A stretch of 64,000 nt of DNA. Origin: Torpedo marmorata. Its lineage: Eukaryota. The notes under the pieces were generated by a model that was given only the letters and a program-made list of their open reading frames with translations, was not told the origin of the DNA and did no database searches. This document shows positions 5,211 to 64,000 of this stretch, one piece after another. The stretch lies in the NCBI GenBank assembly GCA_977017645.1, contig OZ360240.1:45880001-45944000 (forward strand), written 5' to 3'. Positions within the stretch are counted from its first letter, which is position 1, and each line of letters begins with the position of its first letter. The translations under genes were made by a program, and so were the position numbers.

Positions 5211-5257
5211 CTTACAAATAGGTAAAATGCTGGAGTTCAAAGATGCGTTGGGATCCA

Positions 5258-5410
5258 TGAGCAAAATGCAGGCAGGCACCTGAATAAAAAAAAATGCAGG
5301 CACTTGCTTGCTTTTTGCTCGTACCTTGAAGAGGGGCTCAGGCCTGAAACATTGGTTATATATTGTTACCTTCTATGGATGCTGCGAGTCCAGCATTTTT
5401 GTGTTTTTAC
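5258..5410 (+). mobile_element. Penelope-derived foldback element fragment (inverted copy of 5955-6120)
   Basis: Matches the reverse complement of 5955-6120 including the central junction; contains TTGAAGA-GGGGCTCAGGCCT-GAAAC. Confidence 0.7.
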
Positions 5411-5951
5411 AAAGTGCAAAGACATCCTGAGCAATTTGCGATTGCTTGATGCTTGTTTGCTGAAGGTACTCACAGATGTGGACACAACGAAGTCAGAAAT
5501 TCATTAGCAAAATGGATTTAGGATAATATTTGGCCAATATCATAATGAGTGGCGAAAGAGGAGGAGGCGAAATGATTGAAAATGGAGCCACAACAATCGA
5601 GTGAGGAAAGAAGAGAGGTCCCAGTGAGAAAGAGGCTGGGGTTGCAGGGCAAAAAAGAGAAACCTTTTACATGAGAGGAGAAAGGGTACGACAATATGAG
5701 AAATCTGAAATGGAAGAAGGCATCAAAAGAGTGGATGGAAGGACCAAAGTGTGATTTCATATTTCAGGCTACTTCTTCGCGAGGTTTTGGAGAAGACAGG
5801 AAATTATAACCCATAAAAATAAAGTGAGGTGGCATGGGTTGAATGGGCTGAATTGCCTTCTGTGTCATCATATTCATGTGATAAACAGTGTGGCTTCAAT
5901 CATGTACAAGGTGACTTGTATCTAATTCAAAGCCAGGATGTCTTTGCACTT

Positions 5952-6259
5952 TGGAAAAACACAAAAATGCAGGAGGAACTCAGCAGGTCACGCAGCGTCC
6001 ACAGGAGGTAACAATATATAACCAATGTTTCGGGCCTGAGCCCTTCTTCAAGGTATGAGCAAAAAGCAAGCAGGTGCCTGCATTTTGTTTATTTAGGTGC
6101 CTGCCTGCTTTTTGCTCATACCTTGAAGAAGGGCTCAGGCCTGAAACGTTGGTTTTATATCTTTGTCTCCGATGGACACTGCGTGACCTGCTGAGTTCCT
6201 CCAGCATTTTTGTGTTTTTACTACAATCACAGCATCTGCAGACTTGCGTGTTTCACTCC
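5952..6259. mobile_element. Foldback (palindromic) Penelope-like mini-element with two hammerhead-like motifs and TSD
   Basis: Inverted arms 5955-~6072 and ~6104-6219. Flanking direct repeat ATGTCTTTGC(A/G)CTT at 5938-5951 and 6260-6273. Arm sequence is homologous to the region downstream of the Penelope ORF end at 63661-63760. Confidence 0.8.
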
Positions 6260-6919
6260 ATGTCTTTGCGCTTGTCTAGTTTTGGCAATGGGAATTGAAA
6301 AAAATAGGTATCCTGCTGGCAACATAAACTTTGCTCTCCAACAAAGTTGTGTGGATGGACAGCTGCATGGATGGAAGGGAGCATTGTGAATTTAGCTCCT
6401 GACAGTATATGGGGTGGGAAGGCCAGTGAGATAGGTGAAAGAGGCAGTTTATGTTGCAAAATGACAGTGATCTGTGCCTTGCTGAATCTTTTGGAGATTG
6501 TCCGGAAGGTGCACAGAACAGACATGGGTTTTCCCAGTGAAGATTTAAGCATGGAATGGCAAAAGGCAATGAGGAGGGCAAACGTACAATGGTAAGTGAA
6601 GGGAACAATTATTGTTTCCAAGAAGAGAAAAGGAAAGCAAAAAGAAAAAAACAACAGGAAGGGTAGGAGGCAAGAGAAAAATATTCATTCAGAGCCAAAA
6701 GGAAGAGATAATGTTCTCAGGTTCAGAGTAAAAGCCAAAATGTACATGTATTTAACATTTAATTGCTGAATCCTCTTTCCTGTTGCTCTATTCCAGTTCC
6801 CATCCCAAACCATGTTTTCTATTTTTGTACTGCATCTGGGAATTTAAAGTCAGTTAATTAAATAAATATGGAGTAAGATACGATCAATACTTGTAACTAT
6901 GGAACAAGCAGATTATCTT

Positions 6920-7388: not shown

Positions 7389-10195
7389 TCAGAATCAGAA
7401 TCAGAATTTATTGTCATGAACAAGTCATGAAATTCAGTGTTTTGCGGCAGCATCATAGTGCAAACATTCATATTATTACCATCTTACGACATTACTATAA
7501 AAAACATAAATAATAGTGCACGAAACGTAAGTCACTGTCTTTGGTTCATTGATTATTCAGGAATCTGATGGCAGCGGGGAAAAAGCTGTCCTTGTACCAT
7601 TGAGTGCTCTACTTTAGGCTCCTGTACCTTGTTCCCGATAGTAGCAGAGTGAAGAGGGCATGGCCTGGGTGGTGGGGGTCTTTGAGGACGGAGGCTGCTT
7701 TTTTAAAACACCGTCTCGTGTAGATGTCCTCGATGGAGTGCAGTCTGGTGCCTGTGATGTCACAGGCTAAGTTAACAACCCTCTGGAGTTTATTCTTGTC
7801 CTGAGAGTTGGCGCCTCCATACCAGGCAGTGATGCAACCAGCCAGAATGCTCTCCACGGTACACCTGTAGAAGTTTATGAGAGCCTTCGGTGACATACCA
7901 AATCTCCTCAGGCACCTCACAAAGTATAGCTGCTGGCGAGCCTTCTTTGTGATTGCATCAATATGGAGGCTCCAGGACAGATCCTCGGAGATGTTGACAC
8001 CCAGGAATTTGAAGTTCTCGACGCTCTCCACTACTGAGCCCTCGATGAGGACTGGGTCGTGTTCCCCTGACTTCCTGCTGAAGTCCACAATCATCTCCTT
8101 GGTTTTACTGATGTTGAGCGCAAGGTTGTTGTCGTTACACCATTCAACAAGCTGATCTATCTCCCTCCTGTACGCTTCCTCATTGCCGTTTGTGATTCTG
8201 CCAACAACTGTGGTGTCATCAGCAAACTTGTAGATGGCATTGGAATTGTGCCTGGCCACACAGTTATGGATGTATAATGAGTAGAGCAGTGGACTAAGCA
8301 CGCATCCTCGGGGTGCGCCTGTGTTGATAATCAGTGAGGAGGAGACGTTGTTTCCAATTCGTATTGACTGTGGTCTTCCGATGAGAAAGTCAAGGATCCA
8401 GTTGTAGAGTTGGGTACAGATGCCTAGAGTTTGTAGCTTCTTGACCAGCACTGAGGCAATAATGGTATTGAAGGCCGAGCTGTAGTCGATGAAGAGCAGC
8501 CGTATGTATGAATTGCTGTTTTCGAGGTGATCCAGAGCTGAGTGGAGAGCCAGTGATATTGCATCTGCTGTGGAGCGATTGTGACGATAGGCGAATTGCA
8601 GTTGGTCTAGATCTTTGCTTAGGTATGTGTTAATTCTGGCCATGACCAGCCTCTCAAAGCATTTCATCACAGTAGAAGTTAGTGCTGCTGGGTGGTAGTC
8701 GTTGAGGCAGCTCACACTACTCTTCTTGGGTACCGGGATGATTGATGCCCTTTTGAAGCAGGTGGGAACCTCTGACTGCCGCAATGAAAGGTTGAAAATG
8801 TCCGTGAACACTCCGGCTAGTTTGTTGGCGCAGATTTTCATTACCCTTAGAGGTACGCCGTTAGGGCCTGACGTCTTGTGAGGGTTCACCCTCTTGAATG
8901 ATGTTCTGACGTCGCTATCAGAGACAGATATCACAGGGTCCTCAGCCTTTTCAGGGATTCTAGAAGGCACTGTTTGGTTCTTCTTCTCAAAGCGGGCATA
9001 GAAGGTGTTCAGCTCATCGGGTAGTGAAGCATCACAGCCGACTATAGTGTTTGCCCTCGCTTTGTAGGCTGTAATGGCCTGCACTCCCTGCCATAGCTGG
9101 CATGTATCTGTCTCTGTCTCCAGCTTCCTCCGGAATTGCCACTTTGCTTCAGAGATGGCCTTCCGCAGGTCGTGTCTGGTCTTCTTGTAAAGATCCCAGT
9201 CCCCGGCCTTAAATGCCCTTGTTCTCGCCCTCAGCAGGTTGCGAATTCTCTGATTCATCTAGGGCTTCTGGTTGGGGAACACCCAGTATTTGCGCGTGGG
9301 CACACACTCATCCACGCAGGTCTTGATGAAGTCGGTGACACCTGTTGCATATTCACTCAGGTCTTTGGATGAGTTCTTGAATATGTTCCAGTCCACCGAT
9401 TCAAAGCAGTCCTGAAGATGCTCCTCCGCCTCCCCCGACCATACTTTTGCCGTCCTCACCACTAGTGCTGTGGTCTTTAGTCTCTACTTGTACGCTGGGA
9501 GTAGAAGTACAGCCATGTGAGCAGACTTGCCGAAGTGCAGTCGTGGTATGGCTCGGTATGCGTACTTCATGGTGGTGTAGCAGTGGTCAAGTGTGTTGGT
9601 TCCCCTGGTCTCGCATGTGACATGTTGGTGGTAGTTTGTCAGTGACTTCTTCAGATTGGCCTGATTGAAGTCTCCTACAATGATCGGGAAGGCATCAGGA
9701 TGTGCTGTCTCATGGCTGTTTATCACAGTGCTCAGTCCCTCCAGTGCCAGCCTGACGTTAGCCTGGGGCAGAATGTACACTGCGACCAGGATGATGGCGG
9801 TGAACTCCCTCGGCAGATAGAATGGGCGACACTTGATTGCCAGATGTTCCAGGTCGGGGGAGCAGGACTGGGACATGACCGTCACGTCTGTGCACCACGA
9901 TGAATTGATGATGGCACAAACGCCGTTCTCCCCTGGCTTTTCCAGACGGCAGTGTTCAGTCAGCACGATGGAGGGTGTAGCCCTTGGGCTGCAGCGCCGT
10001 GTACGGAATGTCCGCGTTTAGCCACGTTTCTGTAAAGCACATCACGCAGCACTCCCTGATGACTCTCTGATGTTGAAGTCTGGCTTGGAGTTCAAGTTTG
10101 TTCTCCAAGGATTGTACATTGGCCAGGAGGATGGTAGGCTCCCTACCAAGCTTCAGGTCCCCCTGTAGCCCCCCTCTGCGTCCACGTGGTCCACG
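7389..10195 (-). mobile_element. Near-complete Rex1/Babar LINE (APE endonuclease + RT), inactivated by a few stops/frameshift
   Basis: LLANVQSLENK, CFTETWL, IIVGDFN, TLDHCY; [40 protein letters not shown]. ORFs 9484-9966, 9259-9462 and 7609-9258 share one frame separated by TAG stops. 3' tail ACAATAAATTCTGATTCTGATTCTGA. Confidence 0.93.
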
Positions 10196-18434: not shown

Positions 18435-19225
18435 GGATCTTATAGAAAAAGATAAAATTGTGAAAGAGATAGATGACAAAGAGGCAGGAAAGATTTTTCC
18501 ACTGGTAGATGAGACAAGAACTAAGGGACAAAGCCTCAAAATTCAGGGGAGTGGATATAGAACAAATGAGGAGTTACTTTTTCCAGAGAGTAGTGAATCT
18601 GTGGAATTCTCTGCCCAAGGAAGCAGTAGAGGTTGTTTCATTAAATATATTTAAGACACAATTAGATAGTTGTTTTTTTTTTTGCAATACTGGGGGAATT
18701 AAGGGTTAAGAAGTAAAGGCAGGTAGGTGGAGCCGAGTCTACTTCTGATCAGTCATGATCTTATTGAATGGCGGAGCAGACTTGATGGGCCAGATGGCCA
18801 ACTCCTGCTCCTATTTCTTATGTTCTCATGTTTTTGTGCCTTTTTCTGTTGTTGTAGCATCAATTATTTCTAAATTGATCTTATTACAGTATCTGCATGC
18901 ATTTGAAAACTGTATTTTTGTCTCTGCTTCAAGCTCTAAAGATATCAACAATAAATCTGCCATCAATGTATCTAATTAAAAATCTTGATTCTACCTACTT
19001 TCAAGTCTGCTCATAATAACTGGGTTTTAAAGAGACAGGAACTAAGTCAATACACAAGTCAATCTGGCATGGACAAGCTGGGCCTGTTTCTGTACTGTAA
19101 AGCTCAATGATAAACAATCAAGTTACTTTGTTATTATGCAATTTGCAGTATTATTTTGCTTCACACTTTAAATAAACTAAAATGTTTTTGAGTAAGATTT
19201 AGCCCTGTGATGGTCAGGGGTAGAA

Positions 19226-20243
19226 CCTCTGCAACTGGATCCTTGACTTTCTCATCGGAAGTCCCCAGTCAGTACGAATTGGAAACAACGTCTCCTCCTC
19301 ACTGATTATCAACACAGGCGCACCCCAAGGATGTGTGCTTAGTCCTCTGCTCTACTCATTATACACCCATGACTGTGTGGCCAGGCACAATTCCAATGCC
19401 ATCTACAAGTTTGCCGATGACACCACAGTTGTCGGCAGAATCACAAACGGCAATGAGGAAGCGTACAGGAGGGAGATAGATCAGCTCGTTGAATGGTGTA
19501 ATGGCAACAACCTTGAGCTCAATGTCAGAAAAACCAAGGAGATGATTGTGGACTTCAGGAGGAAGTCAGGGGAACACGACCCAGTCCTCATCGAGGGCTC
19601 AGTAGTGGAGAGGGTCAAGAACTTCAAATTCCTGGGTGTCAACATCTCCGAGGATCTGTCCTGGAGCATCCACGTTGATGCAATCACAAAGAAGGCTCGT
19701 CAGCGGCTATACTTTGTGAGGTGTCTGCGGAGATTCGGTATGTCACCAAAGACTCTTGTAAACTTCTACAGGTGTACCGTGGAGAGCATTCTGGCTGGTT
19801 GCATCACTGCCTGGTATGGAGGCACCAACTCCCAGGACAAGAGTAAACTCCAGAGGGTTGTTAACTCGGCCTGTGACATCACAGGCACCAAACTTCACTC
19901 CATCGAGGACATCAACATGAGGCGGTGTCTTAAAAAAGCAGCCTCTATCCTCAAAGACCCCCACCACCCAGGCCATGCCCTCTTCACTCTGCTTCCATCG
20001 GGAAAAAGGTACAGGAGCCTAAAGAAGAGCACTCAACCGCACAAGGACAGCTTCTTCCCCGCTGCCATCAGATTCCTGAATAATCAATGAACCAAAGACA
20101 CTGCCTTACTTTTCATGCACTATTGTTTATAATTTTTTATAGTAATGTCGTAAGATGGTTAATATGAATGTTAATTGCACTATGATGCTGCCGCAAAACA
20201 CCGAATTTCATGACTTGTTCATAACAATAAATTTTGATTCTGA
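19226..20243 (+). mobile_element. 5'-truncated Rex1/Babar copy with open RT C-terminal frame
   Basis: ORF 19335-20090 is nearly identical to the C-terminal half of 7609-9258; tail AATAAATTTTGATTCTGA. Confidence 0.92.
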
Positions 20244-22486: not shown

Positions 22487-22760
22487 AAACAAGGACTGCA
22501 GATGCTGGAAAACTGGAGCAATGTACAACATGCTGAGGGGTTGGCTTTCCAGATGCTGCAGCTCTACAACAGTGTTCACCTTTCATCTGCCAGTCTGTGT
22601 TTCTCCACCTCCCACTATCCTTTTAATCTGGCCTCTCCTCCCCCCCCCCCCATAGATCCTGATGAAAGGTCCCAACCCCAAAAATTGACTGTGTATTGCC
22701 TTCCATGGATGCTGCCAAGCCTGCTGAGTTCATCCAGCATTTTGTGTGTTGCTCCATATT
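22487..22760. mobile_element. Penelope-type element with short inverted end and 10-bp TSD
   Basis: GAATGGGTAC at 22477-22486 and 22761-22770; CTGATGA core at 22659-22665; CCTGCTGAGTTCATCCAGCATTTTGTG family motif. Confidence 0.72.
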
Positions 22761-31120: not shown

Positions 31121-32333
31121 AAATAGGAGGAAAAGGATTGATTTCTTCAAGGATGCCTTTATATCAAAATGGACTTATTCCATTTACTATTAATAATCAA
31201 TTATTTAAAATTTGGTTTCAAAAAGGAATTAAGAAAATAAGTGATTGTTTTGAAGCTGGGAAATTTATTACTTTTCAAAGAATGAAAGATAAATTTAATA
31301 TATTAGATAATACACTTTTTGCTTATTATCAAATTACAGCTTTTCTGATTGAGAAATTAGGTTATGCATTGATTTTACCAAGACAGAATGGATTAGAATT
31401 ATTAGTTACTAATGGAGATGCCAATAAATTTATTTCTCAAATGTATAAATTGTTTCAGAGGAAAATGCCTAAAGTAGGATTGCATAAATCAAGATTAAAA
31501 TGGGAATTAGATTTGAATGTAAGAATAGATGAAAATCATTGGAAAGAATTATGTAAATTAAGTATGACGAAGATTATTAATGTTAGATATAGATTAGTAC
31601 AATACAATTTTTTTCATCAATTATATTTAACACCTAAAAAACTAAAGAAATTTAATCCGACACTATCAAGTTTATGTTTTAGATGTAATAAAGAGGAAGG
31701 GTCTTTTGTACATTCTACATGGTTTTGTCCAAAAGTTTATGATTTTTGGTTGAAAGTTAAAAATTTCTTAGATAAAGTAAAGATTACATTTCCAATGGAT
31801 CCTATGATATTTTTGTTTGGAGATATTAGAAAATTTAGTATTAAGATGAAATTAAATATGTATCATAGAATTTCTGCGAATTGCTTTAGCTGTTTCAAAG
31901 AAATGCATTGCTATTACTTGGAAATCTGATGTAGATTTAGGGTTAGAAAGATGGCATGCAGAACTTCGTTCATGTATACTACTTGAGAAAATTACTTATA
32001 ATTTACGTAATAAATATCATTTCTTCTTAAAAATGTGGAGCCCATATATGAAAGCTGTTGGTTTAAGGATTTGAAGATCTCTGGATATTGGATCTACTGG
32101 CATACTTGACCTCCATAATAGAATTAGTTTATAGATTGGCATTCTCCTTACTTTTTCTTTTTTCTTCTTCTTTTTCTATTTTTATTTTTTTTTTTTATTT
32201 TTTATTAGATTAGTGGGGTTGGGAAGGGGAGGGAGGGGGGGGTGAAAAAGTATCACAAATAATTTGATAATTTTATATTTTATTTTATGTATTTTGTGAT
32301 TTAAAAATTTTAAATAAAATATTTTTTAAAAAC
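31121..32333 (+). mobile_element. 5'-truncated L1/Tx1-clade LINE (ORF2 C-terminus with CCHC zinc knuckle, 3' UTR)
   Basis: CFRCNKEEGSFVHSTWFC motif; AT-rich; T-rich then G-rich 3' UTR, AATAAA and A-tail; TSD AGCTGATTGT at 31111-31120 and 32334-32343. Confidence 0.88.
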
Positions 32334-57548: not shown

Positions 57549-57651
57549 CATCAGAAATGGGAACAAGAATGGGCCATCCGGCCCTTCGAGCCAGTCATTC
57601 ATCAGAATGATGGCGCTCTTCCATTTCCAGCACCACACCCCACGAGTTAAA

Positions 57652-57805
57652 CAGGGAAATCTATGGACGCTGTGATTGTAATATAATACACAAAGGCACT
57701 GGAGAAACTCAGCAGGTCACGCAGCATCTAAAGGTTGGTACCCCTTTAACTTCCCAGAGATCCTGCGTGACCTGCTGAATTTCCCCAGCACCTTTGTGCA
57801 TTGCA
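57652..57805. mobile_element. Short foldback Penelope-type element
   Basis: CACAAAGGCACTGGAGAAACTCAGCAGGTCACGCAG...CTGCGTGACCTGCTGAATTTCCCCAGCACCTTTGTG inverted arms. Confidence 0.7.
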
Positions 57806-60357: not shown

Positions 60358-60645
60358 TTCAAGCTCAAGCCCGAAACGTCGGTTATGTATTTCTACCTTT
60401 GCTACATAAAAGACACTGTTTGACCTGCTGAGTTTCTCCAGCATTTGTGTTTTTTACTTCAACAACGGTGTCTACAGATTTTCGTGTTTTACTTTTAAAG
60501 ATAAACTGGAGAGATTCAAGAGTTAGGCAGCATCCATGGGGAGAAATGGTCAGTCAAAGATCCCGATGCTGTTTGACTCGCTGAGTTCCTCCATCTTTTC
60601 TTTGTTCACTCAAGATGGCAGCATCTGCATTTCTTGTGTTTCTCA
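60358..60645 (+). mobile_element. Penelope-type terminal fragments
   Basis: GCTCAAGCCCGAAACGTCGGTTATG...TGACCTGCTGAGTTTCTCCAGCATTTGTG; a second fragment lies at ~60525-60645. Confidence 0.65.
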
Positions 60646-63660: not shown

Positions 63661-64000
63661 GCAGTGTCCTTTATTAGCAAAGGTAAAAATACATAACTGA
63701 TGTTTCAGGCTTGAGCACTTCATCAAGGTATGGGAAAATGTCGGCAGGCACCTGAACAAAAGAGTAGGGAGGTCGCTAAGGCAGGAGGTGATAGGTGGAG
63801 AAGGGAGGGAGGGGACAGCAGTGATCAAGGGGAGGAGGGATGGCTAGGTGAAGGGAGGGGGAAGGGAGGGAGGAGAACTGGAAAGGGGAAGGGTAGGGGG
63901 GAGGGGGAAGAGGAGAGCAGGTTAGCAGAAACTGTAAAAGTCGATGTTAATGCCATCTGGCTGGAGAGTGCCCAGACGAAAAATCAGGTGTTGTTCCTCC
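63661..64000 (-). mobile_element. Penelope-like retroelement 3' end (GIY-YIG domain C-terminus, pyrimidine tract, hammerhead-like motif); runs off window
   Basis: Minus-strand translation EEQHLIFRLGTLQPDGINIDFYSFC-stop (TAA 63924-63922), typical of the PLE endonuclease end, followed by CATACC-TTGATGA-AGTGCTCAAGCCT-GAAAC-ATC-AGTTATG. Confidence 0.8.

Follow-up and report, generated by a model that had tools for sequence, protein, structure and literature searches.

A near-palindromic Penelope-like insertion stub and the U3-G8 hammerhead-like core of its parent family in Torpedo marmorata

Positions 5938-6273 of a 64,000-nt stretch of Torpedo marmorata DNA (contig OZ360240.1, positions 45,880,001 to 45,944,000; hereafter the window) fold back on themselves and carry a hammerhead-like motif on each strand. 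The genome containing the window is 6.2 Gb in size. Is this palindrome a unit that moves in its own right or what is left of one ordinary insertion, and do its motifs, with U at core position 3, belong to a working ribozyme? The features of the window on which the answers depend are as follows.

5257-5429 (plus): local inverted duplicate of 5934-6119, containing the seam, left arm, target-site duplication (TSD) and a few flank bases
5938-5951 (no strand): left TSD, 14 nt, ATGTCTTTGCACTT
5955-6079 (minus): inverted 5′-truncated pseudo-LTR (pLTR) arm whose 3′ end is the short one, without the tail
6021-6054 (minus): decayed minimal-hammerhead motif with U3 at 6051, stem III ACAU (palindrome broken) and U17 at 6024
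6080-6094 (no strand): head-to-head seam inside the T-rich stretch of the pLTR, unlike the seams of seven other foldbacks
6095-6219 (plus): direct 5′-truncated pLTR arm of group A1 (copies about 7% diverged)
6120-6153 (plus): decayed minimal-hammerhead motif with U3 at 6123, G8 at 6128, G10.1-U11.1, ACGU and U17 at 6150
6220-6259 (plus): one-sided tail of about 40 nt, reaching the long 3′ end of the family
6260-6273 (no strand): right TSD, one mismatch, ATGTCTTTGCGCTT
57644-57802: older, smaller foldback of pLTR 3′ ends with 45-nt arms, lacking the hammerhead part
60363-60493 (plus): short 3′ stub with a tail, from the youngest group (C), cut off inside stem II
63661-64000 (minus): 3′ end of a broken RT + GIY-YIG Penelope-like copy, with the ORF stop at 63922-63924 and a U3 core at 63726

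The near-palindrome described in the initial annotation was borne out: its inverted arms are 125 nt long, 89% complementary (14 mismatches) and separated by a 15-nt spacer. The 14-nt direct repeat reported on its flanks is also there, with its single mismatch, and only 1 in 3000 random 25-nt window pairs reached such a duplication of at least 14 nt with at most one mismatch. A tail, on which the initial annotation was silent, is confined to one arm, where about 40 nt extend past the palindrome up to the right duplication. The two arms are about 11% apart, which fits the 7% median divergence of group A1 copies from their majority line. The segment at 5257-5429 sits 500 bp from the palindrome. 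It matches the left half of the palindrome in the seam, in bases private to the left arm, in the TSD and in bases of the flank, indicating that it is a local inverted duplicate and no independent insertion; it may have originated by a palindrome-triggered template switch.

A hammerhead-like motif was indeed found on each strand. The ACGT-type stem III claimed for both arms is present in the right arm, and the left one reads ACAT. Cleavage triplets in the stub are AUU on the left and GUU on the right (U17 in both) versus GUC in the family, and both motifs are CpG-decayed. Since they are placed on opposite strands, the two motifs cannot act as a dimer. This placement, the AUU and GUU triplets and a read-through RNA that is predicted to be locked in a single hairpin (−215.6 kcal/mol) indicate that both motifs of the stub are likely inactive. 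An Rfam scan of the window gave no hammerhead match up to E 5, and the sub-cut-off Rfam matches to miRNA hairpins were accounted for by the palindrome. The window has four TTGAnGA cores, each accompanied by stem II and GAAAC, at 5326 (plus), 6051 (minus), 6123 (plus) and 63726 (minus). A decayed C3-core copy (CCTGATGAAAGG...), apparently of an older group, is located at 22657-22750.

The arm had been described as homologous to the region that follows a Penelope ORF end at 63661-64000. We found that this copy extends into the neighbouring stretch, where its broken RT + GIY-YIG frame continues. Within the window, 63925-63999 (minus) translates as EEQHLIFRLGTLQPDGINIDFYSFC followed by a stop, and the terminal sequence of the copy is EEQHLIFRLGTLQPDGINIDF. 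Most of the 29 other loci closest to the arm end near one common 3′ point, and many extend upstream through a pyrimidine-rich stretch into the ORF end. The tie of the repeat to RT/GIY-YIG ORFs was confirmed genome-wide by protein-picked and ORF-anchored copies, and with it the Penelope origin of the palindrome: the arm is the 3′ pLTR of an RT + GIY-YIG element. Other frames of the window, at 7609-9258 (minus), 19224-20090 (plus) and 31123-31929 (plus), resemble LINE reverse-transcriptase fragments.

A protein search for the parent gave 125 scored matches with 94-100% identity and no internal stops. One locus, L228, is an intact tandem parent, in which a 1236-aa ORF lies between two pLTRs with the U3 core in both. 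Its ORF contains RVT_1 (E 6e-6) and GIY-YIG (E 5e-4) domains, both slightly below the Pfam curated cut-offs. The parent family, as represented by L228, therefore has the single ORF with RT and C-terminal GIY-YIG that defines an EN+ Penelope-like element (PLE). Partial tandems forming pLTRs are present at L219, L223 and L228, and their pLTR pairs show 3, 0 and 6 differences per 160 nt. The link to the ORF, the intact L228 and the near-identical pairs indicate that the Penelope-like family whose pLTR forms the arm was recently active. The intact ORFs of L228 (3500-4200) and L219 carry a long insert of proline/alanine-rich tandem repeats before the RT domain, and its length varies. A CX4CxxC linker was found in 27 of 28 ORFs spanning the RT-EN region. 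A CX2-5CxxC linker between RT and EN is described as a mark of Neptune/Nematis (PMC8557442), and by this linker sequence the parent family would be of the Neptune/Nematis type.

Is the U of the stub cores at position 3 a product of decay? The initial annotation had concluded that it is fixed in the subfamily, arguing from four copies in the window. The argument is weak because three of the four cores come from one insertion, which leaves two independent insertions; the conclusion held. Matched 29-nt patterns, with the TCAA-loop form excluded, gave genome-wide counts of 7015 for U3-G8, 279 for C3-G8, 141 for A/G3 and 173 for U3-A8. Thirty loci were picked by protein, independently of core patterns; a downstream core was present in 26, with U3 in 26/26. 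U3 and G8 were read in every one of the 39 readable copies among 41 untargeted ORF-anchored ones, and 16 of these 39 belong to older groups; at 18 further untargeted ORF ends the motif was not found. Background sequence of 684 kb gave 53 matches, 46 with U3 and 5 with C3, some of the 53 being inverted partners of targets. The U3-G8 core is thus fixed in groups A1, A2, B and C and inherited from autonomous parents.

G8 is uncompensated opposite U3, and the dominant families lack the Watson-Crick 3-8 pair (C3-G8 or other) that characterizes a PLE minimal hammerhead. A register shift, with C2.1 serving as C3 beside an inserted U, was rejected since the youngest group has no C there. Divergences of the U3 groups are 7, 4, 3 and 2%. 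C3 characterizes separate, older-looking groups, with a median of 10% in E and only 3 rows each in F and D. The tree was built from 53 of 69 rows, with group C thinned and only two rows from the older D/E groups. L091 (G000:C25, ~209,776,900-209,781,300) is a minisatellite in which a 36-nt unit is repeated about 122 times over 4.4 kb. The unit consists of a C3 minimal-hammerhead core, stem II and GAAACGTC; its stem I looks poor, and the array ends in a pLTR 3′ end.

A literature search for C3U, U3-G8 and the UUGANGA variant returned no paper treating the variant, and a search of the shark and elasmobranch literature gave only unrelated papers among the matches listed. Luense et al. 2017 and Przybilski and Hammann 2007 may each be relevant to U3-G8. 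A U3-G8 Penelope hammerhead is already in print: the PLE-linked Saccoglossus motif UUGAAGAA has this core (Cervera and De la Pena 2014, PMC4209133, Fig. S3). There is also mention of a haloviral or saltern variant in which U3 and G8 are written (PMC7151607).

The family motif was then considered apart from the stub. U4 G5 A6 N7 G8 A9, the extra base, G12 A13 A14 and G10.1-C11.1 are all present in the family majority lines, together with a palindromic 15.1-16.1 (ACGU) and a NUH cleavage triplet (GUC). A comparison of the majority lines of five groups shows 4 variable columns among the 28 of the core and 69 among the 110 of the flanks, so that the 28-nt core is likely still selected as an RNA fold, with the qualification that its conservation is partly ascertained because most copies were found via core patterns. 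The core is not coding in the ORF of the element, since it is placed 178 nt upstream of the first ATG in L228; coding constraint was also rejected on the ground that the frame through the core closes. N7 varies freely, and CpGs are decayed in 15-40% of copies and kept in young parents. Among 15 distinct hand-picked rows, two stem I pairs had changed on both sides, only between the C3 and U3 groups, and no compensatory change was detected in stem II or within the U3 groups. An alternative helix of core positions 2.1-6 with loop II, prompted by U3 and the G-to-A change in the loop, was rejected at a pairing probability of about 0. In dimer folding, the hammerhead form was less stable than the alternatives in U3 and C3 groups alike, and the energies do not separate the groups. 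The motif is covered by contigs of four sequencing runs, which as contigs cannot reveal RNA ends.

With slightly less than even probability, the U3-G8 motif has lost catalysis and is a relic that the pLTR retains solely as a promoter or for protein binding. A mutational scan of a type III hammerhead gave low activity for every single change within the CUGA turn region (PMC9901934), and accordingly the motif here may be a non-cutting relic. The inner stem I is weak at 2-3 bp: the youngest group has U2.1-G1.1 there and group B a U-C mismatch. The rescuing U3-A8 form has not been amplified, its 173 matches being at the level of decay. For the Anolis element, insertion in vitro reportedly did not depend on hammerhead cleavage, and RNA ends at the cleavage site were not observed (PMC11167929). 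Against a relic, lineages separated by about 0.2 changes per site have retained all other core positions, GUC and the ACGU palindrome, with three CpGs, even as N7 and loop II vary, and the sole changed position (3) still permits a wobble pair. Measurable cleavage by the family RNA is possible, though we lean somewhat against it. The motif most likely acts as a slow ribozyme dependent on a dimer or a protein, or as a protein-binding fold, and would not be strictly needed for transposition. It is rather unlikely, as a more specific course of events, that the dominant young lineages early on exchanged the near-universal C3-G8 pair for an uncompensated U3-G8 wobble and kept the rest during repeated amplification waves, as an attenuated hammerhead that cuts only with its own protein or a tandem partner. 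If true, the attenuated U3-G8 hammerhead would be a built-in switch timing RNA processing in the transposition cycle.

How the stub was formed can be approached from other insertions of the family. In seven other foldbacks, a tail was found on one arm in five, on neither arm in two and on both arms in none. An automatic screen of 90 pattern-picked copies flagged 20 with an inverted 3′ end, a few of these flags being doubtful; among the 15 flagged copies with both ends classed, 12 had one tail, 3 had none and none had two. Eighteen double-ended candidates left 11 evaluable inserts, 6 of which had a duplication of 10-16 nt, all with one long and one short end and with spans of 383-2897 bp. No TSD was found in the remaining 5 of the 11 evaluable inserts, some of which have mis-set ends.

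Purified Poseidon protein was reported to cut and extend both strands in vitro, with reverse transcription from two internal starts that bound the tail (PMC11167929). Two-strand priming of this kind, a model borrowed from a Poseidon-clade protein in vitro, likely applies to the 5938-6273 stub by analogy. The enzyme of the element would cut both DNA strands with a 14-nt stagger, and copies of the element RNA would be made into both cut ends, starting at two points separated by about 40 bases, one long and one short. Both cDNAs would stall early in the T-rich stretch and then join head to head. Two-strand copying with head-to-head joining would yield a palindrome, a single tailed arm and a TSD, and all three are observed. 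The same element could also have made the palindrome by fold-back self-priming of one cDNA or by use of an antisense template. Self-priming on an antisense template was put forward for head-to-head PLE seams (Arkhipova 2013, PMC3846280), and the seams do concentrate in an A/T-rich stretch. We consider this distinctly unlikely, as one-strand fold-back copying alone does not explain why a long end is paired with a short end and never with another long one.

The initial annotation had taken the palindrome for one of a class of non-coding, PLE-mobilised foldback units. This was not what the wider comparison showed: seams differ, lengths vary, and among the best 30 matches to one arm only two are short foldbacks, one of them being the 5938-6273 locus itself. 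The seven other foldbacks have seven different seams. In a seam search in which the best 40 of 1415 candidates were scored, no dispersed copy of the 6080-6094 seam was found among those 40, and other foldbacks turned up instead. A self-propagating (MITE-like) foldback family was rejected on these comparisons, no seam and length being repeated at many unrelated loci among the foldbacks compared. A non-LTR retrozyme was rejected for the palindrome because its two motifs are on opposite strands and there are no head-to-tail tandem units. One foldback seam is present at three loci (L046, L051 and L052; ~1340-1570, sense orientation), where the flanks are also common, so that a larger repeat carries it along; the alignment of L051 with L052 extends over 1.6 kb. 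At the start, CAGTGGCGG is reminiscent of a DNA-transposon end.

That the palindrome is a non-autonomous foldback mini-element, transcribed and re-inserted whole by the Penelope enzyme, is very improbable: a clean TSD encloses the entire unit, several foldback centres lie within about 30 nt of a common T-rich stretch and the seam is common to the 5257 copy, but that copy is only 500 bp away and includes TSD and flank, all seven other seams differ, spans range from 243 to 2897 bp and no dispersed copy of the seam appeared among the best 40 of 1415 candidates. The stub shows the inverted 5′-truncated copy, the tail of 30-40 bp at one end and the TSD that mark insertions of EN+ Penelope-like elements. 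We conclude that the palindrome is very probably a single decayed insertion stub of an EN+ Penelope-like retrotransposon, likely made by two-strand copying, and that its motif is an inherited part of the pLTR.

The 5938-6273 locus is real and was correctly tied to Penelope-like elements; its layout is known and its core variant was already printed. The stub itself has little weight, being a clean instance of a published insertion layout. The strict asymmetry of long and short ends, together with the 10-16 nt duplications, provides a genomic read-out of PLE two-strand priming. A wobble-core lineage at very high copy number beside older C3 relatives in one genome offers a natural comparison for whether PLEs need hammerhead cleavage.

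The layout of the palindrome is the arrangement of inverted pLTR, one-sided tail and short TSD already described (PMC3846280, PMC8557442). The Adineta elements Pen2/Pen2a (PMC3846280; scheme in PMC8557442) likewise have an inverted 5′-truncated pLTR, a tail of 30-40 bp at one end and a short TSD, and EN+ elements of this type share with the family here the partial tandems and the RT with C-terminal GIY-YIG (PMC3846280, PMC8557442). Unlike in the Adineta examples, both arms here are cut off inside the pLTR, so that no coding sequence is left, and the TSD is 14 bp versus 8-10 bp (PMC3846280). The minimal hammerheads of PLEs were defined in PMC4209133, with low activity even as dimers. Metazoan PLE type I motifs described there resemble those here in the extra base after A9, G10.1-C11.1 and the loop-less palindromic stem III, as well as in the short stem I and the pLTR location. 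The consensus given is CUGANGA and the variant discussed in its text is U3-A8, whereas here U3-G8 dominates thousands of copies, intact young elements included (PMC4209133). Poseidon_Ac of Anolis (Frangieh et al. 2024, PMC11167929) has two 3′ ends bounding the tail and a hammerhead upstream, as here. It differs in having a canonical C3-G8 and an ORF that starts from stem II, whereas the ORF here begins 178 nt downstream and contains the CX4CxxC linker. Non-LTR retrozymes (bioRxiv 10.64898/2026.07.22.740005) are also non-coding, pLTR-derived and hammerhead-bearing, but they form head-to-tail tandems with a one-strand motif per unit, whereas the palindrome here is a single head-to-head insertion.
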